Assembly (NCBI RefSeq): GCF_055900595.2
Contig: NZ_CM148325.1
Length of the DNA stretch: 64,000 nucleotides
Strand: one strand, 5' to 3'
The position numbers were made by a program, and so were the translations under genes. Below the pieces are notes generated by a model. It worked only from the letters and a program-made list of their open reading frames with translations. It searched no databases and was not told the DNA's origin. This document shows positions 30-61,407 of this stretch, one piece after another (positions within the stretch are counted from its first letter, which is position 1; each line of letters opens with the position of its first letter).

Positions 30-602
30 TTAGTCATTATGACTGGCATGGATTAACGTCAACCCCGGATGATGCCACAAACTGGCTGGCGTGACGGTTT
101 TACGCTCCCACGGAATAGAACCTAAGAACCAGAATTTCCAGAAAGTGAGTTTTGCATTTGGATTGCTGTTTAGCAGTTCTCCAAACGTCTCTATTTCACC
201 CACCGGAATACATAACGCCTCTTTATAAATATCAAAAACGAATTTTGAACAGAACTGGCGGGAAGATTCGTATTTAAAACCGGTGTGGTAGAACTTATGC
301 AACCGGGCAGGGACCTTTTCGACAAGAGCAAGTTTCTGCTCTGCGGTTAAACCTCCTGCCAGGCGGCGAACACCGTAGCGTTGCTCGGTCGACCGTTCAA
401 TAAATCGTGACAAAGTTGTGATTGTGGAGAGCGGAACTCGACTCTCCGCAACCAGGTAATCATCACCGTCATGTCCGATGATTATCCCCACATGGTTGCT
501 CCAGCATTTCGAGGCTGCAGAGATTTGCCCAAACAGGCGAGCACCGATGCAGGTAAAAACAATATCACCGGTTTCATATTTAGCTGGGTAATTTATTTTC
601 AC
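30..602 (-). CDS. yebB: YebB-like protein (conserved core gene divergent from ruvA); apparent GTG start at 600-602
   Basis: 190-aa ORF; position divergent from ruvA matches core synteny; protein recalled as YebB-like from memory, not verified. Confidence 0.65.
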
Positions 603-695
603 TATATCAATCCATTATTTATATATAAAACAGCATCTATCTTTCGTGATGGTAAAGCATTAGCATTGTATTGTAATAATGACAAGGAATGTTTT

Positions 696-1520
696 ATGCG
701 GTTATTTATTAATGTGATAATGATAGTTTCGATCAGTCAATGCGTGAATGTATTTGCTCAAGATAATGTCATTCGCTATCCCTGGCGATATGGACGTATT
801 TCTTTAAATGAGAATAATGAGTTTGTGCCTCAAATTATTCATATGCGTGATGATATCTACGGCGTGGGTGAAGTTGGTGCAAGCCTTAACGATGCGAGAA
901 TGGCGCAAAGTGGTGTCACCGTGAGGCTTAGCGTTATACAGCAGGGGCAGGTGGTGAATGCTTTACTGGATTTCTACAATAGCAATAATCAACCTGCTTA
1001 TATATTTGAAGGCGGTTTATTGTCCTGCAATAAAGCCTTTGACATCACAACAAACAACATTGTCCTTGATGGGATGTGTGGAATTTATGATGGGGTCGAT
1101 GGCTGGCAAGTTATTCCTGCGGGTGAGCATTATAAAGAATCGTTTTCACTCACTCAGGCTTTTGAATTCTTGCCGGGAAAACATCATTATAAAATTAATG
1201 CCGGAGGTTTTATCATCAGAGTCGGGGATGATATTTTTGCAAGAGAAGATGCCGAAAGCATTCTTTTTGATTTGATTAACTGGCGATATGGCTATGTGCT
1301 AAAAAGTTATGAAAGGGTGTCAAAGGGGGATTTGATGGCAGGATATTATGCTCTGTATGAATACTCAGGCGCTGACATAATTGATGAGTATGATATTTAC
1401 TCAAACCAGGTGTCGATTGATCTTAATGGTGACGAGTTAGCACATACGGAGTCCTATCAGTGGCGAATTGATAGCGGAATGATCCCGGAAAAATTCAGCG
1501 TTCAGGGACTCGCTGAATGA
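696..1520 (+). CDS. hypothetical secreted protein, 274 aa, with predicted Sec signal peptide (MRLFINVIMIVSISQCVNVFA / QDNV)
   Basis: ATG at 696 preceded by AAGGA (684-688); N-terminus has n/h/c signal-peptide architecture with V at -3 and A at -1; the track ORF 471-1520 is trimmed because 471-602 overlaps yebB. Confidence 0.55.
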   Translation: MRLFINVIMIVSISQCVNVFAQDNVIRYPWRYGRISLNENNEFVPQIIHMRDDIYGVGEVGASLNDARMAQSGVTVRLSVIQQGQVVNALLDFYNSNNQPAYIFEGGLLSCNKAFDITTNNIVLDGMCGIYDGVDGWQVIPAGEHYKESFSLTQAFEFLPGKHHYKINAGGFIIRVGDDIFAREDAESILFDLINWRYGYVLKSYERVSKGDLMAGYYALYEYSGADIIDEYDIYSNQVSIDLNGDELAHTESYQWRIDSGMIPEKFSVQGLAE

Positions 1521-2298: not shown

Positions 2299-2910
2299 GT
2301 GATAGGCAGACTCAGAGGCATCATCATTGAAAAACAACCCCCACTGGTATTAATTGAAGTGGGCGGCGTAGGCTATGAAGTGCATATGCCGATGACCTGT
2401 TTTTATGAACTCCCTGAAGCGGGTCAGGAAGCGATCGTTTTCACCCACTTTGTGGTGCGTGAAGACGCGCAACTGCTGTACGGTTTTAACAATAAACAAG
2501 AGCGCACGTTGTTCAAAGAGTTGATCAAAACCAACGGCGTTGGGCCTAAACTGGCATTGGCAATCCTCTCCGGAATGTCAGCGCAGCAGTTCGTTAATGC
2601 CGTTGAGCGTGAAGAAGTGGGGGCGCTGGTGAAACTGCCGGGTATTGGCAAAAAAACCGCCGAACGCTTGATTGTCGAAATGAAAGACCGATTTAAAGGT
2701 TTACATGGCGATCTCTTTACGCCAGCTGCCGACCTGGTACTCACGTCACCTGCCAGCCCGGCGACCGATGATGCCGAACAGGAAGCGGTTGCCGCGCTGG
2801 TGGCGCTGGGCTATAAACCACAAGAAGCAAGCCGCATGGTGAGCAAAATCGCTCGCCCTGACGCCAGCAGTGAAACATTAATTCGCGAAGCCCTGCGCGC
2901 CGCGTTATGA
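2299..2910 (+). CDS. ruvA: Holliday junction branch migration complex subunit RuvA (GTG start)
   Basis: 203-aa [31 protein letters not shown]... recognised as RuvA. Confidence 0.97.
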
Positions 2911-6639: not shown

Positions 6640-7962
6640 GTGCAACAGATAGCCCGCTCTGTCGCCCTGGCGTTTAATAATTTACCGCGACCACACCGCG
6701 TTATGTTGGGGTCGCTCACCGTTCTTACTCTGGCCGTCGCTGTCTGGCGGCCCTATGTTTATCACCGCGATGCCACGCCAATTGTCAAAACCATTGAGCT
6801 GGAACAGAACGAAATTCGTTCGCTCTTACCTGAAGCCAGTGAGCCGATTGATCAAGCTGCACAAGAAGATGAAGCCATTCCCCAGGATGAACTGGATGAC
6901 AAAATCGCCGGTGAAGCGGGCGTGCATGAATATGTTGTTTCCACTGGCGATACGCTAAGCAGCATTCTCAATCAGTATGGTATTGATATGGGTGATATCA
7001 CCCAACTGGCTGCTGCTGACAAAGAATTGCGTAACCTGAAAATCGGTCAACAACTTTCCTGGACATTAACCGCGGACGGCGAATTGCAGCGCCTTACCTG
7101 GGAAGTATCTCGTCGGGAAACCCGAACCTATGACCGTACTGCCGCTAACGGTTTTAAAATGACCAGCGAAATGCAGCAAGGAGAGTGGGTCAACAATCTG
7201 CTGAAAGGTACCGTCGGGGGAAGCTTTGTTGCCAGCGCCAGAAACGCCGGTTTAACCAGCGCCGAAGTGAGCGCAGTGATTAAAGCCATGCAGTGGCAAA
7301 TGGATTTCCGCAAACTGAAAAAAGGCGATGAATTTGCGGTGTTAATGTCACGAGAAATGCTTGATGGCAAACGTGAGCAAAGCCAACTGCTGGGCGTACG
7401 TTTGCGTTCAGAAGGTAAAGATTATTACGCAATCCGCGCTGAAGATGGCAAATTCTACGATCGTAACGGTACTGGTCTGGCGAAAGGATTCTTGCGATTC
7501 CCGACGGCGAAACAGTTCCGTATCTCGTCTAACTTTAACCCGCGTCGTACTAATCCGGTGACTGGTCGTGTTGCGCCACACAGAGGTGTTGATTTCGCCA
7601 TGCCACAGGGTACGCCAGTGCTTTCAGTGGGTGACGGTGAAGTGGTGGTTGCCAAACGCAGTGGCGCAGCAGGTTATTATGTGGCTATTCGTCATGGTCG
7701 TAGCTACACCACGCGTTATATGCACTTGCGTAAGATTCTGGTGAAACCAGGACAGAAAGTGAAACGTGGCGACCGTATCGCGCTTTCCGGTAATACTGGG
7801 CGTTCAACCGGGCCGCATTTGCACTATGAAGTCTGGATCAACCAGCAGGCCGTAAACCCGTTGACGGCAAAATTGCCGCGTACCGAAGGGCTGACCGGCT
7901 CCGATCGTCGCGAATTCCTGGCGCAGGCCAAAGAGATTGTGCCGCAGCTACGGTTTGATTAA
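6640..7962 (+). CDS. mepM: murein DD-endopeptidase MepM (YebA), M23/LysM family, GTG start
   Basis: 440-aa ORF with M23 motifs HRGVDFA and GPHLHYEV. Confidence 0.93.
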
Positions 7963-49975: not shown

Positions 49976-51340
49976 TTAGTCACACTGGACTTTAATTGCC
50001 AGACCACCACGAGACGTTTCGCGGTACTTGGCGTTCATGTCTTTACCGGTTTCGTACATCGTTTCGATGACTTTATCCAGCGAGACGCGCGGCGCACTGG
50101 TGCGACGCAGGGCCATCCGCGCGGCGTTAATCGCCTTGACTGACGCAATGGCGTTACGTTCAATGCACGGCACCTGAACTTGCCCTGCAACAGGGTCACA
50201 GGTCAGACCGAGGTTGTGCTCCATGCCAATTTCCGCTGCCACACAAACCTGTTCCGGGCTACCGCCCAACAGCTCGGCAAGGCCCGCAGCAGCCATTGAA
50301 CAGGCAACACCCACTTCGCCCTGGCAACCGACTTCCGCACCGGAAATAGAGGCGTTCATTTTATACAGTGCACCAATCGCGCCCGCAGCCATAAAGTAAC
50401 GGGTATAGATGTCCGGGCTAACCGATTCAATAAAGTGGTCATAATAAGCCAGCACTGCCGGAACAATGCCACAAGCACCGTTGGTTGGCGCTGTTACCAC
50501 ACGACCACCGGCGGCGTTTTCTTCGTTAACTGCCAGCGCAAACATGTTTACCCAGTCAATGACATTCATCGGATCGTTAGACAGTTTATCGCTGGAAACC
50601 AGCATCCGGCGCAGGGCCGACGCACGACGCGGCACGCGCAGCGGGCCTGGCAGTACGCCTTCGGTGTTCATCCCGCGATCGATACATGCCTGCATGGTTT
50701 GCCAGACATGCGCGAAATACTCGTCGATCTCTTTCTTGCTGTGCAGCGCCAGTTCGTTCTGCATAGCGAGACCAGACAGCGAATAGCCGGTTTCATTACA
50801 GTACGCGAGCAGTTCGGTGGCAGATTTGAACGGATACGGCACGCTCACTTCGTTGGCGGCATCCTGACCAAAGTGTTCTTCATCGACGATAAAACCGCCG
50901 CCGATGGAATAATAAGTTTTGCTGTAGACGACTTCATCGCCGTTATAGGCGTGGATTTGCATACCGTTTTCATGCAGCGGCAGGTTGCCGTTATGAAAAC
51001 GCATCCCGTTGTCGCGCGGGAAATCCACTTCATGCCGTCCCTGTGCCAGCAGCAGACGTTCGCGCTCTTCTACGTCGCGAATAAAACCGGGAATACTGTC
51101 GATATCCACGGTGGCAGGTTCGTTACCTGCAAGACCCATAATAATGGCGATATCGGTGTGGTGGCCTTTACCCGTCAGCGACAGTGAACCATAAACGTCC
51201 ACGGCAACGCGAGTAACGCTATCCAGTAAGCCTTTTTCGACCAGATCATCGACGAACTGTTTACCCGCCTTCATAGGCCCTACGGTATGGGAAGATGAGG
51301 GACCAATCCCCACCTTAAACATGTCGAATAGACTAATCAC
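49976..51340 (-). CDS. sdaA: L-serine dehydratase 1
   Basis: 454-aa ORF. Confidence 0.95.
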
Positions 51341-51523: not shown

Positions 51524-52102
51524 TCAGGGTTTCACACCAATTTGCAGCGCCAGCTCACGAATTATGCCTGCGGTCATTCCCCATACAAAATACTGTTCAT
51601 ACCAGGACAGCCATACCCGATGAGAATCGCCACGGCGGTAGATATCTAAAGGGTGATAACGACCCAGATGTAATGCCTGGGCGAGCGGCATTTCAAACAC
51701 AGCGGAGACTTCATCTTCACTGGCGCGATACGGTAGATCGGGCGGGATAATGCCGACCACCGGGGTTACCTGGTAGCCAGTTACGCTATCGACGGGCGGC
51801 AGCACGCCGATAACTTCAACGGCGGAAGGCGGTATAGCGACCTCTTCTTCAGCTTCGCGCAGCGCGGCGGCGATAACGGATGTGTCCGTGTCATCGACTG
51901 CACCTCCAGGGAATGCCACTTGTCCGGCGTGTTTACGCAGATGAATCGAACGCTGAGTCAGCAACAACCCCGGTTGCGGTCGACGGACGATGGGGATTAA
52001 CACGGCAGCCTGACGATGATTTAGGGTTTCCCGGTTAATTTGCGGGCGCAAAAGTTGAAAACGCGATAAAAAATCATCAAGCGTCAGGCTACGGTATTCC
52101 AC
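51524..52102 (-). CDS. nudL: Nudix CoA pyrophosphohydrolase NudL
   Basis: 192-aa ORF with Nudix box. Confidence 0.9.
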
Positions 52103-52104
52103 GT

Positions 52105-53466
52105 TTATTTCTCCAGTTGCTTCAGGATACGATTAACTTTATCAAAAGTTTCCTGATATTCCGCTTCTTCCTGGCTATCAGCGACAATTCCACCGCCCGC
52201 AGAGCAGTATATTTGTCCGTTAATGGCAGTCAGCGTGCGGATAGTAATGCTGGTATCCATGTTGCCGCAAAAGCTCAAATAGCCAATGCTGCCGCACCAG
52301 GCATTGCGTCGCTGCGGTTCCAGTTCGTCGATAATTTCCATAGCCCGTACTTTCGGTGCTCCAGTTATTGAGCCACCAGGAAAAGCTGCGCGCAGCAGAT
52401 CGCTGGTGTGTAACTGTTCTGGTAGTTGCGCCGTTATGGTGCTGACCAGATGATGCACGGCAGGGAAGGGTTCCACCACGAACAGCTCTGGTACTTTTAC
52501 CGAACCTGCTACGGCAACACGACCGATATCATTACGCATTAAATCGACAATCATCAGATTTTCGGCACGATCTTTCGCTGAGTTCGCCAGTTTTTCTGCT
52601 TGTTTGCTATCTTCCTGAGGATCGGGTAGGCGTGGTAGCGTGCCTTTAATCGGGCGGGTCTGGATTTCACTATTATCACAAAGAATAAACCGCTCTGGCG
52701 AAAGGCTTAAAATCGCGCCCTGTTCAAGACGTAAAAAAGCGCTAAATGGCGCGCGGTTGGCCTGATTAAGCTGAAGGAATGCCTGCCATTCATCGCCAGA
52801 ATAGGTCGCATGGAAACGCTGGGCGAGATTCACCTGATAGCAATCACCGCTGTGCAGATATTCCTGTACCTGGCGAAATTTTTCGCCGTACAGCTCGCGG
52901 GTCATATTGGATTGCCAGTCGGAAGTGAGCGTGAAATCTTCCTGCGGCGAGAATTGCTGGCTTTCCAGCCAGGCCCGACGGGCATTGACATCATTATGAC
53001 TCAGCAAAGAAACTGTTTGACGCTGGTGGTCGACAATGAGCGCCCAGTCGTAGATACCCACAGCCATATCCGGCAGAACGATATCTTGCTGCGCAATTTC
53101 TGGCAGTGACTCAAAACGGCGGCCCAGATCGTAGCCAAACAACCCCATCGCGCCGCCCTGAAATGGCAAATCTTCGTTATGCGCTGGGCGAATGTCTGCG
53201 CGATCCAGCACCTGCTGGAGCACCTGTAGCGGGTCATCAGTGGTCGTTGTGCGTTTTTCGCTTTCACTAACAACGGTTTCTTTACCGAAAGTGGTTAAAG
53301 TGCAAATCGGCTCGGCGACCACAATATCAAAGCGGCTATATGGATGATCGGCATAGCCGGAGTGTAAAAGCATCGCCCACGGCAGGTGACTTAAGCGGGA
53401 GAAATAAAATTCAGCGGCGTCCTGACGCCAGGGTAAAGTAATCACAGCGGGAGATAACGTCTTCAT
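52105..53466 (-). CDS. pabB: aminodeoxychorismate synthase component I
   Basis: 453-aa ORF. Confidence 0.95.
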
Positions 53467-54904: not shown

Positions 54905-55035
54905 CATTTTGTCCTCATTATCCTTCCATTTTCGTGCTGCAAAGACTGCCACAATGTGAGGTCGCCGTCACCACTTCAACTGGCGAAAGCGCCCTCATCC
55001 TGACATAATCCCTGTTCAAATCAACAGGGGGTAGT

Positions 55036-56946
55036 GTGACGGACGATTTTGCACCAGACGGTCAGCTGGCGAAAGCGATACCAGGCTTTAAGCCGCGAGA
55101 ACCACAGCGACAGATGGCGGTAGCCGTCACCCAGGCGATAGAAAAAGGCCAGCCGCTGGTGGTGGAAGCAGGAACCGGTACGGGCAAAACCTACGCTTAC
55201 CTGGCTCCTGCGCTGCGGGCGAAAAAGAAAGTCATTATCTCGACCGGCTCAAAAGCGTTGCAGGATCAGCTCTACAGCCGCGATTTGCCAACAGTCTCAA
55301 AGGCATTGAAATATACGGGCAACGTGGCGCTGCTGAAAGGGCGCTCTAACTACCTCTGCCTCGAACGTCTCGAACAGCAGGCGCTGGCGGGTGGCGATCT
55401 ACCGGTACAAATTTTAAGCGATGTGATCCTGCTGCGCTCCTGGTCTAATCAAACAGTCGATGGTGATATCAGCACCTGCGTCAGCGTGGCGGAAGATTCA
55501 CAGGCGTGGCCGCTGGTCACCAGCACCAACGACAACTGCCTTGGCAGCGACTGCCCGATGTATAAAGATTGCTTTGTGGTCAAAGCACGCAAAAAAGCGA
55601 TGGACGCCGATGTGGTGGTGGTAAACCATCATCTCTTTCTGGCGGATATGGTGGTGAAAGAGAGTGGATTTGGCGAACTGATCCCGGAAGCGGACGTCAT
55701 GATCTTTGACGAAGCCCATCAGCTGCCCGACATTGCCAGCCAGTATTTTGGTCAGTCACTCTCCAGTCGACAACTGCTCGACCTGGCAAAAGACATCACC
55801 ATCGCCTACCGCACCGAATTAAAAGACACCCAGCAGTTACAAAAGTGCGCCGACCGCCTTGCCCAGAGCGCGCAGGATTTTCGCCTGCAATTAGGTGAGC
55901 CAGGTTATCGTGGTAACCTGCGCGAACTGTTAGCTAATCCGCAAATTCAGCGAGCATTTTTACTGCTCGATGACACCCTGGAACTTTGTTATGACGTGGC
56001 GAAACTGTCGCTGGGGCGTTCCGCCTTGCTGGATGCGGCATTTGAGCGCGCCACGTTGTATCGTACGCGGCTGAAACGGCTAAAAGAGATCAATCAGCCG
56101 GGCTACAGCTACTGGTACGAATGCACTTCGCGCCATTTTACTCTGGCACTCACGCCGCTCAGCGTGGCGGATAAATTCAAAGAGTTAATGGCGCAAAAAC
56201 CAGGTAGCTGGATCTTTACCTCAGCAACGCTGTCGGTGAATGACGATCTGCATCATTTTACCTCGCGGCTTGGCATTGAACAGGCAGAGTCGTTGCTGTT
56301 ACCCAGCCCGTTTGATTACAGCCGCCAGGCGTTACTCTGTGTGCCGCGCAACCTGCCGCAAACCAACCAGCCGGGCTCCGCACGGCAACTGGCGGCAATG
56401 CTGCGACCGATCATCGAAGCTAACAACGGTCGTTGTTTTATGCTTTGTACCTCGCACGCCATGATGCGCGATCTGGCTGAGCAGTTCCGCGCCACCATGA
56501 CGCTTCCCGTGTTGTTGCAGGGGGAAACCAGCAAAGGCCAACTGCTACAGCAGTTTGTCAGCGCCGGTAACGCGCTGCTTGTGGCGACCAGCAGTTTCTG
56601 GGAGGGGGTGGATGTGCGTGGCGATACATTGTCATTGGTGATTATCGACAAGTTGCCGTTTACCTCCCCAGATGACCCGTTGTTAAAAGCGCGCATGGAA
56701 GATTGCCGTTTGCGCGGTGGTGACCCGTTCGATGAAGTACAGCTGCCGGATGCGGTCATTACTCTCAAGCAGGGAGTAGGGCGACTGATTCGCGACGCCG
56801 ACGATCGAGGGGTTTTGGTGATTTGCGATAATCGGCTGGTGATGCGTCCTTACGGCGCGACCTTCCTCGCCAGTCTGCCGCCCGCGCCACGCACCCGTGA
56901 CATTGCCCGTGCGGTTCGTTTCCTTGCGATACCATCCTCCAGGTAA
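55036..56946 (+). CDS. yoaA: DinG-family ATP-dependent helicase YoaA (GTG start)
   Basis: 636-aa ORF with Walker A GTGTGKT and DEAH box. Confidence 0.93.
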   Translation: MTDDFAPDGQLAKAIPGFKPREPQRQMAVAVTQAIEKGQPLVVEAGTGTGKTYAYLAPALRAKKKVIISTGSKALQDQLYSRDLPTVSKALKYTGNVALLKGRSNYLCLERLEQQALAGGDLPVQILSDVILLRSWSNQTVDGDISTCVSVAEDSQAWPLVTSTNDNCLGSDCPMYKDCFVVKARKKAMDADVVVVNHHLFLADMVVKESGFGELIPEADVMIFDEAHQLPDIASQYFGQSLSSRQLLDLAKDITIAYRTELKDTQQLQKCADRLAQSAQDFRLQLGEPGYRGNLRELLANPQIQRAFLLLDDTLELCYDVAKLSLGRSALLDAAFERATLYRTRLKRLKEINQPGYSYWYECTSRHFTLALTPLSVADKFKELMAQKPGSWIFTSATLSVNDDLHHFTSRLGIEQAESLLLPSPFDYSRQALLCVPRNLPQTNQPGSARQLAAMLRPIIEANNGRCFMLCTSHAMMRDLAEQFRATMTLPVLLQGETSKGQLLQQFVSAGNALLVATSSFWEGVDVRGDTLSLVIIDKLPFTSPDDPLLKARMEDCRLRGGDPFDEVQLPDAVITLKQGVGRLIRDADDRGVLVICDNRLVMRPYGATFLASLPPAPRTRDIARAVRFLAIPSSR

Positions 56947-58320: not shown

Positions 58321-58524
58321 TTGCTTGTTTTTAAAGAAAAAGAAACAGCGGCTGGTCCGCTGTTTCTGCATTCTTACGGTAAAGATAAAAATAAATAGTG
58401 ACGCGCTTCGCAACCTTTTCGTTGGGTAATTATCAAGCTGGTATGATGAGTTAATATTATGTTAACAGCATGTATATCATTTGGGGTTGCGATGACGACG
58501 AACACGCATTTTAGAGGTGAAGAA

Positions 58525-60210
58525 TTGAAGAAGGTTTGGCTTAACCGTTATCCCGCGGACGTTCCGACGGAGATCAACCCTGACCGTTATCAATCTCTGG
58601 TAGATATGTTTGAGCAGTCGGTCGCGCGCTACGCCGATCAACCCGCGTTTGTGAATATGGGGGAGGTGATGACCTTCCGCAAACTGGAAGAACGCAGTCG
58701 CGCGTTTGCCGCTTATTTGCAACAAGGGTTGGGACTGAAGAAAGGCGATCGCGTTGCGTTGATGATGCCTAATTTATTGCAATATCCGGTGGCGCTGTTT
58801 GGCATTTTGCGTGCCGGGATGATCGTTGTAAACGTTAACCCGTTGTATACCCCGCGTGAGCTGGAGCATCAGCTTAACGATAGCGGCGCATCAGCGATTG
58901 TTATCGTGTCTAATTTTGCCCACACTCTGGAAAAAGTGGTTGATAAAACCGCCGTTCAGCACGTTATTCTGACCCGTATGGGCGATCAGCTATCCACGGC
59001 AAAAGGCACGGTAGTCAACTTCGTTGTTAAATACATCAAGCGTCTGGTGCCGAAATACCATCTTCCAGATGCCATCTCATTTCGCAGCGCACTGCATAAC
59101 GGCTACCGGATGCAGTACGTCAAACCCGAACTGGTGCCAGAAGATTTAGCTTTCCTGCAATATACCGGCGGTACCACTGGTGTGGCGAAGGGCGCGATGC
59201 TGACTCACCGCAATATGCTGGCGAATCTGGAACAAGTTAACGCGACTTATGGGCCGCTGTTGCATCCGGGCAAAGAGCTGGTGGTGACGGCACTGCCGCT
59301 GTATCACATTTTTGCTCTGACCATTAACTGCCTGCTGTTTATTGAACTGGGTGGGCAGAACCTGCTTATCACTAACCCGCGCGATATTCCGGGGTTGGTA
59401 AAAGAGTTAGCGAAATATCCGTTTACCGCGATAACCGGCGTTAACACCTTGTTCAATGCGTTGCTGAACAATAAAGAGTTCCAGCAGCTGGATTTCTCCA
59501 GTCTGCATCTTTCTGCAGGCGGTGGTATGCCTGTTCAACAAGTGGTGGCTGAACGTTGGGTGAAACTGACCGGACAGTATCTGCTGGAAGGTTATGGCCT
59601 GACCGAGTGTGCGCCGCTGGTCAGCGTTAACCCGTATGATATTGATTATCATAGTGGTAGCATCGGTTTGCCGGTGCCGTCGACGGAAGCCAAACTGGTG
59701 GATGATGATGATAATGAAGTACCACCGGGTCAACCGGGTGAGCTTTGTGTCAAAGGACCGCAGGTGATGCTGGGTTACTGGCAGCGTCCGGATGCTACCG
59801 ATGAAATCATCAAAAATGGCTGGTTACACACCGGCGATATCGCGGTGATGGATGAAGAAGGATTCCTGCGCATTGTCGATCGTAAAAAAGACATGATTCT
59901 GGTTTCCGGTTTTAATGTCTATCCCAACGAAATTGAAGATGTCGTCATGCAGCATCCTGGCGTACAGGAAGTCGCAGCTGTTGGCGTACCTTCCGGCTCC
60001 AGTGGTGAAGCGGTGAAAATCTTCGTAGTGAAAAAAGATCCATCGCTTACCGAAGAGTCACTGGTGACCTTTTGCCGCCGTCAGCTCACGGGCTACAAAG
60101 TACCGAAGCTGGTGGAGTTTCGTGATGAGTTACCGAAATCTAACGTCGGAAAAATTTTGCGACGAGAATTACGTGACGAAGCGCGCGGCAAAGTGGACAA
60201 TAAAGCCTGA
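58525..60210 (+). CDS. fadD: long-chain fatty acid-CoA ligase FadD (TTG start at [10 protein letters not shown]; the track ORF is extended upstream)
   Basis: 561 aa with AMP-binding motif [12 protein letters not shown]. Confidence 0.93.
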
Positions 60211-60228
60211 GCGTTAAGTCAGTCGTCA

Positions 60229-60256
60229 GACGCCGGTTAATCCGGCGTTTTTTTTG
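60229..60256 (+). terminator. rho-independent terminator downstream of fadD
   Basis: CGCCGGTTAATCCGGCG hairpin followed by TTTTTTTT. Confidence 0.8.
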
Positions 60257-60279
60257 ACGCCCACTAAAGAGAATACAAT

Positions 60280-61407
60280 TTGAATTACCAAATGATTACC
60301 ACGGACGATGCGCTGGCTTCTTTGTGTGAAGCCGTCCGTGCCTTTCCGGCGATAGCCCTGGATACTGAATTTGTTCGTACGCGCACCTATTACCCGCAGC
60401 TGGGTCTAATTCAACTTTTTGATGGTGAGCATCTGGCGCTAATTGATCCTCTCGGGATCTCCGACTGGTCACCGCTGAAAGCGATACTGCGCGATCAGTC
60501 CATCACAAAATTTCTCCATGCGGGCAGTGAAGATCTGGAAGTGTTCCTCAATGTCTTTGGCGAATTACCACAACCCTTGATTGACACGCAAATCCTTGCT
60601 GCCTTCTGCGGACGCCCGATGTCATGGGGTTTCGCTTCCATGGTGGAAGAGTATTCCGGCGTTACGCTGGACAAGAGTGAATCGCGCACCGACTGGCTGG
60701 CCAGACCGCTGACCGAACGTCAGTGTGAATACGCAGCGGCGGATGTCTGGTATCTGTTACCGATCACCGCAAAGCTTATGGTAGAAACGGAGGCCTCCGG
60801 CTGGCTACCTGCGGCGCTGGATGAATGCCGCCTGATGCAAATGCGTCGTCAGGAAGTCGTTGCACCGGAAGATGCCTGGCGTGATATCACCAATGCCTGG
60901 CAGTTACGCACACGCCAACTGGCCTGTCTGCAACTGTTAGCCGACTGGCGACTGCGCAAGGCGCGGGAGCGCGATCTGGCGGTGAACTTTGTCGTGCGTG
61001 AAGAGCATTTGTGGTCGGTAGCGCGTTATATGCCGGGAAGTTTAGGCGAACTGGACAGCCTGGGCTTATCCGGTAGCGAAATCCGCTTTCACGGTAAAAC
61101 GCTGCTGGCGCTGGTGGAAAAAGCGCAGACATTGCCGGAAGAGGCCTTACCGCAGCCGATGCTTAACCTGATGGACATGCCGGGTTATCGTAAAGCGTTT
61201 AAAGCGATTAAGTCGCTGATTACTGACGTGAGCGAAACACACAAGATCAGCGCCGAATTGCTGGCATCGCGTCGGCAAATCAACCAGCTGCTGAACTGGC
61301 ACTGGAAACTGAAACCGCAGAACAATTTGCCGGAGCTGATTTCCGGCTGGCGTGGTGAGCTGATGGCGGAAGCATTACACAATTTATTGCAGGAATATCC
61401 ACAGTAA
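60280..61407 (+). CDS. rnd: ribonuclease D (TTG start)
   Basis: 375-aa ORF MNYQMITTDDALASLCEAV... with DEDDy exonuclease and HRDC domains. Confidence 0.93.
   Translation: MNYQMITTDDALASLCEAVRAFPAIALDTEFVRTRTYYPQLGLIQLFDGEHLALIDPLGISDWSPLKAILRDQSITKFLHAGSEDLEVFLNVFGELPQPLIDTQILAAFCGRPMSWGFASMVEEYSGVTLDKSESRTDWLARPLTERQCEYAAADVWYLLPITAKLMVETEASGWLPAALDECRLMQMRRQEVVAPEDAWRDITNAWQLRTRQLACLQLLADWRLRKARERDLAVNFVVREEHLWSVARYMPGSLGELDSLGLSGSEIRFHGKTLLALVEKAQTLPEEALPQPMLNLMDMPGYRKAFKAIKSLITDVSETHKISAELLASRRQINQLLNWHWKLKPQNNLPELISGWRGELMAEALHNLLQEYPQ

Follow-up and report, generated by a model that had tools for sequence, protein, structure and literature searches.

Near-cognate start codons of conserved genes between yebB and yeaW on an Escherichia coli chromosome

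The DNA analysed here, referred to as the window, is the whole stretch of 64,000 nucleotides taken from contig NZ_CM148325.1 (RefSeq assembly GCF_055900595.2). It is a piece of the E. coli chromosome running from yebB to yeaW and corresponds to about 1.885-1.947 Mb of K-12 MG1655 in reverse orientation, with the gene order yebB, ruvAB, znuACB and mepM, followed further along by mgrB and then by yoaA, tsaB, yeaY, fadD, rnd, yeaX and yeaW. Among 5,426 complete genomes of the species, 5,425 contain the 4-kb stretch around the start of rnd, which matches E. coli chromosomes at 100% identity. As the window is identical to its best-matching genome, NZ_CP098223, only around 58-62 kb, coordinates were set by direct sequence matching instead of a simple offset from that genome, which is 1-2 nt off. 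Every gene start of K-12 MG1655 in the region was placed on the window by 60-nt matches. A Pfam search with the two open reading frames (ORFs) between yebB and ruvA gave no match.

Several genes in the window begin with GTG or TTG. An earlier note on this DNA had proposed TTG starts for rnd and fadD and GTG starts for ruvA, mepM, yoaA, rsmF, mgrB and, as probable, yebB. With both strands read, all eight codons are found where they had been placed, in frame with the expected proteins. Alignment with curated reference proteins, one of the checks proposed at the time, bears out every one of the eight, the K-12 MG1655 RefSeq starts being the same codons. Seven of the eight match the K-12 start directly (0-1 mismatches in the 60-nt matches), while yebB is too divergent for such a match. 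The list itself was incomplete, as manX, sdaA and nudL also begin with GTG; the K-12 MG1655 starts are the same for all 11 non-ATG genes of the window, which are given below.

600..602, minus strand: GTG start of yebB (190-aa ORF, 30..602), with no other canonical start from the stop 5 codons upstream as far as codon +37
2299..2301, plus strand: GTG start of ruvA (203 aa), the K-12 start; no earlier start is possible, the upstream stop lying 8 codons away
6640..6642, plus strand: GTG start of mepM (yebA; 440 aa), the K-12 start; no earlier start is possible, the upstream stop lying 5 codons away
28047..28049, minus strand: GTG start of rsmF (yebU; first base 28049; 479 aa), the K-12 and PGAP start
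39506..39508, plus strand: GTG start of mgrB (47 aa, VKKFRWVV), the K-12 start; no earlier start is possible, the upstream stop lying 10 codons away
46222..46224, minus strand: GTG start of manX, the K-12 start, with Shine-Dalgarno (SD) sequence AAGGAGGT (duplex -13.0 kcal/mol); profile NF011670 aligns from 1/323
51338..51340, minus strand: GTG start of sdaA, the K-12 start; NF011598 aligns 1-454/454
52100..52102, minus strand: GTG start of nudL; K-12 nudL also has GTG and 192 aa; NF007980 aligns 1-191/192
55036..55038, plus strand: GTG start of yoaA (636 aa, VTDDFAPDGQ), the K-12 and PGAP start
58525..58527, plus strand: TTG start of fadD (561-aa product), the K-12 and PGAP start; NF006523 aligns 1-560/561
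60280..60282, plus strand: TTG start of rnd (375-aa product, first residues LNYQMITTDD); the upstream in-frame stop is 5 codons away, and no other start codon lies in between

These 9 GTG and 2 TTG starts fall among 63 genes, all K-12 genes mapped being counted, which amounts to 11/63 or 17%. Genome-wide, 14% of E. coli starts are GTG and 3% are TTG (bioRxiv 10.1101/063800). An enrichment or clustering of non-ATG starts in the window was considered and dropped, the binomial probability being 0.51 for at least 11 such starts overall and 0.57 for at least 2 TTG. The presence of several non-ATG starts is the genome-wide norm and no special feature of this region.

When the proteins are read from these codons, positions 1-2 of full-length NCBIfam equivalog profiles align to residues 1-3, with yebB entering its profile at position 6. 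In ruvA, mepM, mgrB, yoaA, yebB, rnd, manX and sdaA, the stretch from the upstream in-frame stop to the proposed start contains no ATG, GTG or TTG, and the next in-frame start lies, in most of these genes, 11-37 codons inside profile-covered sequence (4 codons downstream in rnd and 6 in sdaA). Of 10 genes tested, 9 have a duplex energy with the anti-SD sequence that favours the proposed start over the closest alternatives; yebB is the exception, and the margin is slight in rsmF. The duplexes are strong in fadD, mepM, yoaA and manX (-10.0 to -13.0 kcal/mol), moderate in ruvA, mgrB and sdaA, and weak in rnd, rsmF and yebB (about -3 kcal/mol). From the local sequence alone, the alternatives remaining are an ATG 4 codons downstream in rnd, ATGs 11 and 22 codons upstream in fadD, and an ATG 2 codons upstream in rsmF. 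The supplement of a tetracycline ribosome profiling (TetRP) study contains no start in conflict with these genes save an alternative N-terminus of fadD (PMC4909307).

For the genes other than rnd, fadD and rsmF, the individual features are readily summarised. The ruvA start is preceded by the SD sequence GGAG (duplex -7.7 kcal/mol), and TIGR00084 aligns from 1/202. In mepM, the SD sequence is GAGGAAGTGA (duplex -10.0 kcal/mol), and positions 1-439/439 of NF008652 align to residues 1-440, while mgrB has GGAG (duplex -6.7 kcal/mol) and aligns with NF007635 over 1-47/47. The yoaA start follows GGGGG (duplex -10.8 kcal/mol), and positions 2-629 of 630 of its profile are aligned. The nudL ORF (51524..52102) encodes 192 aa, and its GTG lies 2 nt after the stop of pabB, whose ORF ends at 52105. 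Position 6/205 of NF008547 aligns to residue 1 of yebB, and the yebB start is homologous to the K-12 GTG, with GTG AAT ATT AAT TAC CCT in K-12 corresponding to GTG AAA ATA AAT TAC CCA in the window. In the closest genome, PGAP begins yebB at an ATT 13 codons inside the ORF, which is implausible.

The starts of rnd, fadD and yoaA were also compared across species. Species-representative genomes were scanned for RNase D with 6-kb flanks, which gave 80 Enterobacteriaceae loci also carrying fadD and yoaA. The species counted were 79 for rnd, 75 for fadD and 70 for yoaA; the peptide MNYQMITT was one of six patterns used in the scan and could favour loci retaining the rnd N-terminus, the five other patterns being used alongside it. 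As a control, all internal TTG and GTG codons aligned in at least 60 species were inspected in these three E. coli genes, and none of these 83 codons is restricted to ATG, GTG or TTG, with a median of five distinct codons per column. A first codon so restricted can thus be taken as a genuine start-codon signature. The yoaA start is GTG in 69 of the 70 projected species, and the remaining case is an indel projection artefact in which the GTG is present. At the level of sequence, the cross-species data, including those on rsmF given below, provide independent support for the starts of rnd, fadD, yoaA and rsmF.

In rnd, the start codon lies close to a downstream ATG and is preceded by a structured leader, with the following components.

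60228..60255, plus strand: GC-rich hairpin followed by T8, resembling an intrinsic terminator, between the fadD stop (60208-60210) and rnd
60267..60272, plus strand: AAGAGA, a weak, purine-rich SD-like sequence 7 nt upstream of the rnd TTG (anti-SD duplex -2.9 kcal/mol)
60292..60294, plus strand: ATG at rnd codon 5, the PGAP start (371 aa), judged internal (anti-SD duplex +0.4 kcal/mol, no SD within range)

According to a terminator scan, the stem of the hairpin spans 60228-60250 with 9 pairs and the T8 occupies 60248-60255, the whole beginning 18 nt after the fadD stop; its fold has an energy of -22.7 kcal/mol (z = -3.4). A hairpin with a U-run is found upstream of rnd in all 79 species, the stem sequences differing in Kluyvera, and (A/G)AGAGA stands at the same position in nearly all of them (L061 has a divergent spacer), with a variable spacer downstream. 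The order of hairpin, T8, AAGAGA and TTG is kept across the 79 species. Codon 1 of rnd is TTG in 75 species and GTG in 4, and the differences in codons 2-4 are nearly all synonymous third-position changes (AAT/AAC, TAC/TAT, CAA/CAG). K-12 rnd (b1804) has 1128 nt and begins at the same TTG as the window, and NF008089 aligns 1-375/375 to RNase D read from this codon. The TTG start would give the N-terminal peptide MNYQMITTDDALASLCEAVR.

Nominally, one set of reference proteins disagrees with the earlier note, which had held that proteins starting at an ATG would speak against the claimed starts. In 6/6 sampled E. coli genomes, namely the closest one and five others spread over the identity range (an MG1655 derivative included), PGAP calls an rnd of 1116 nt from ATG 60292. 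If this call were right, RNase D would have 371 aa and the TTG four codons upstream would belong to an untranslated leader; an ATG is by nature a stronger start than a TTG, and TIGR01388, an older model, likewise starts at residue 5. Against this, no codon but TTG or GTG occurs at position 1 in the 79 species, a restriction shared by none of the 83 control codons, and the Asn-Tyr-Gln codons in between vary almost only synonymously. Moreover, codon 5 is ATT and not ATG in one of the 79 species (L051), and the conserved AAGAGA is 19 nt away from the ATG compared with 7 nt from the TTG, with an unfavourable duplex at the ATG. The curated K-12 record, NF008089 and the crystal structure entry PDB 1yt3 (RNase D, MNYQMITT..., N-terminus as from the TTG) all have 375 aa. 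A start at ATG 60292 is hence regarded as extremely improbable, and the comparative evidence shows the call to be a pipeline error, leaving the TTG at 60280 as the start of rnd. On this comparison, the PGAP call is judged to be four codons short. The truncation of RNase D by four residues appears to be systematic in E. coli genomes, given the 6/6 sampled, and probably arises because the first position of TIGR01388 corresponds to residue 5.

A similar question concerns rsmF, where an in-frame ATG lies two codons upstream of the GTG (28053-28055; first base 28055, minus strand) and would give a protein of 481 aa beginning MLVAQH.... ATG is again the stronger start codon, a good SD sequence is found at neither candidate (-2.4 versus -2.9 kcal/mol), and many automated E. 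coli predictions begin with MLVAQH. The protein search used to follow this start outside E. coli was made with a 150-aa fragment as query and returned mostly truncated or frameshifted predictions, which were used for their N-termini and for the DNA of four loci. In the DNA of these four non-E. coli relatives, the GTG is kept in 4/4, while the upstream ATG is absent from 4/4, the codons at its position being CTC, GTG, CTC and TCG. The GTG is therefore considered the conserved start. In other genera, the predicted proteins either begin MAQ... or VAQ... at the GTG position, or read through it with Val there and no Met at position -2. In addition, the K-12 record (revised entry NP_416349.2), PGAP, NF008898 (positions 2-478 of 480 aligned to the protein read from the GTG) and PDB 2frx (YebU/RsmF, MAQHTV..., N-terminus as from the GTG) all have 479 aa. 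It is thus very unlikely that rsmF starts at the upstream ATG, and the GTG at 28049 is preferred. The N-termini of PDB 1yt3 and 2frx count only as weak support for the rnd and rsmF starts, since such constructs follow the annotation.

The fadD start is of a different kind, as the TTG is well supported and the question is whether a second start precedes it. The AGAGGT SD sequence of the TTG (duplex -10.1 kcal/mol) is invariant in the 75 species, of which 57 have TTG and 18 have GTG as the start codon. This start-codon constraint, together with the invariant strong SD sequence, makes the TTG/GTG certainly a start. K-12 fadD (b1805) likewise has TTG, 561 aa and the same SD sequence, and its start region is identical to that of the window (0 mismatches in 60 nt). 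The 60-nt leader geometry known for the K-12 gene is also that of the window (PMC3460868). While K-12 thus shows no difference at the annotated start, it also contains, unannotated, the conserved ATG described here.

58492..58494, plus strand: in-frame ATG upstream of fadD, a candidate second start 11 codons upstream of the TTG (572 aa)

It could be speculated that fadD is translated, additionally or even mainly, from this ATG, giving a 572-aa FadD. The ATG is invariant in 75/75 species and has an almost invariant GGGG 9-12 nt upstream (GGTG in L061), and no species has a stop or an indel between the ATG and the TTG. Variation within this block is biased towards third codon positions, with a mean entropy of 0.25/0.31/0.60 at codon positions 1/2/3 and changes such as ACG/ACA/ACC, AAC/AAT, ACG/ACT and TTT/TTC, and no such periodicity is seen farther upstream. 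A conserved RNA structure behind the block was ruled out (consensus fold -0.74 kcal/mol, a double change in only 1 pair), so the conservation is not explained by RNA folding. Transcription of fadD starts 60 nt upstream of the TTG, which places the ATG on the mRNA, within the transcribed leader (PMC3460868). Finally, the ATG is among the new alternative N-termini of the TetRP study, listed as "alt-N'(new) fadD -33" (PMC4909307 supplement).

Several observations weigh against a start at this ATG. The TetRP signal is near the threshold (4.04), and the 33 nt of the block offer little statistical power, with species that are phylogenetically related. The downstream TTG/GTG is itself under start-codon constraint with its invariant strong SD sequence, and it is where the K-12 record, PGAP and NF006523 place the N-terminus. 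The N-terminus of the purified enzyme has reportedly been sequenced and is counted against initiation upstream. The block could instead be a binding site for a protein or an sRNA. Translation from ATG 58492 into a 572-aa protein is accordingly judged unlikely, and a functional start of any kind at this codon is viewed as doubtful. The TTG remains the bona fide start of fadD, and ATG 58492 may be a second start, or the conserved block may be a binding site. Only tentatively, Enterobacteriaceae may make FadD in two forms, one of 561 aa and one longer by 11 residues from AUG 58492 with its own G-rich ribosome-binding element, or loading of ribosomes at this AUG may modulate the weak TTG. This conserved leader ATG is a modest lead that can be put to the test.

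As regards mechanism, initiator fMet-tRNA pairs with GUG and UUG in the 30S P site despite the mismatch at the first position, and the protein still begins with Met. Initiation at near-cognate codons is usually weaker than at AUG, most so at UUG. In reporter measurements, GUG was close to AUG, and UUG was six- to eight-fold lower (PMC3592434). The literature found on the UUG of rnd (RNase D) and the TTG of fadD contained no text stating these start codons. Both cases are said to have been characterised experimentally decades ago. Zhang and Deutscher (J Biol Chem 1989, cited in PMC3592434; PNAS 1992, cited in PMC3575828) reportedly identified the UUG as the start of K-12 rnd, found that it helps to keep RNase D expression low, and described the leader arrangement of hairpin and U8. 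K-12 rnd shares with the window the TTG, the MNYQMITT codons, AAGAGA, the hairpin and the run of eight T, with 1 mismatch in 60 nt around the start. There is no difference of substance between the two genes, which are alleles of one locus. A stretch of eight U immediately preceding a ribosome-binding site is reported to enhance translation, and the U-run of rnd is described as needed for its translation (PMC3575828).

While the position, frame and conservation of the starts and their agreement with curated references are observed here, we infer any effect on the level of expression. For rnd, the UUG and the weak AAGAGA SD sequence most likely keep RNase D synthesis low, and the U-run, probably via ribosomal protein S1, would make initiation possible at all. 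The same hairpin-U8 element may also be the terminator of fadD. In fadD, initiation takes place at a TTG that follows a strong, invariant AGAGGUG SD sequence. In the GTG genes, the codon is the earliest possible start of the ORF or, in rsmF, the only one kept across genera. A plausible likeness for rnd is the AUU of infC, a weak start codon on a gene whose product is kept at a controlled level. In infC, autoregulation arises as IF3 discriminates against its own AUU codon; we know of no feedback of this type for any gene discussed here.

Very probably, the eight starts and the three additional ones are nothing unusual: near-cognate initiation codons, annotated before, of housekeeping genes conserved in E. 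coli. They are known already, being the same as in the curated K-12 reference annotation, and since they stand in that reference they carry little biological weight; their practical value lies in annotation. Automated callers often make RsmF two residues too long by beginning it MLVAQH... at the upstream ATG. An ATG-only rule would misplace N-termini by 4 (rnd) to 29 codons (ruvA), and there is no ATG in the first 80 codons of yebB. In tracks of ORFs that admit only ATG or take the first ATG, proteins are cut or lengthened by 2 to 29 codons, which in the 47-aa MgrB is more than half of the protein.

Automated annotation (RefSeq/PGAP) starts rnd at an internal ATG (60292), giving a product of 371 amino acids, in 6/6 E. 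coli genomes sampled (loci L001 and L085-L089), one of which derives from MG1655. Comparative evidence and the curated entry for K-12 both give the TTG start and 375 amino acids. For rsmF, many automated predictions use an MLVAQH... N-terminus, one cluster of which holds 1,102 member sequences, beginning at an in-frame ATG two codons 5' of the GTG (28053-28055, minus strand), and this ATG was missing in all four of the other lineages checked. The PGAP entry for yebB in the nearest genome (locus L002) has an ATT start codon and 177 amino acids, and the ATT start looks like an artefact.

Upstream of the fadD and yoaA starts lie two further elements:

58482-58524, plus strand: conserved fadD 5' leader block, which takes in a GGGG (58483-58486) and an in-frame ATG (58492-58494)
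55012-55031: LexA-box-like CTGT-N8-ACAG palindrome, immediately 5' of the yoaA GTG

The ATG in the fadD leader, 11 codons before the TTG, is identical in 75/75 Enterobacteriaceae species, while the GGGG is kept in 74 of the 75. The frame between ATG and TTG is open, with changes concentrated at third codon positions, and a search for conserved RNA structure in the leader block found none. An entry in the supplement of a 2016 ribosome-profiling study gives the upstream ATG as an alternative N-terminus of fadD (PMC4909307).

The palindrome before yoaA overlaps the GGGGG Shine-Dalgarno of the gene and is kept in most of the 70 species aligned. Its LexA-like form is consistent with membership of yoaA in the SOS regulon.

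The region between yebB and ruvA is organised as follows:

603-2298: yebB-ruvA spacer, 1,696 bp, 41.7% GC against 50.1% for the whole window
471-1520: spacer ORF, 349 amino acids, hypothetical in the nearest genome's annotation
1537-2127: spacer ORF, 196 amino acids, likewise hypothetical there

The K-12 spacer, in contrast, is only 274 bp and carries the tiny gene yobI, and the extra DNA looks like an insertion. A Pfam search of the two spacer ORFs gave no match. Within 1-602 of the window, yebB (ORF 30-602, minus strand) encodes 190 amino acids, with a C-terminal end unlike that of K-12 yebB (200 amino acids). In the nearest genome (L002, 39523-41001) the gene next to yebB encodes a PstS-family protein in place of ruvC, a gene order suggestive of an island or rearrangement at the 3' end of yebB.

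Elsewhere, the nudL GTG start follows the pabB stop codon after only 2 nt (52100-52107, minus strand), a spacing which suggests that the two genes may be translationally coupled.
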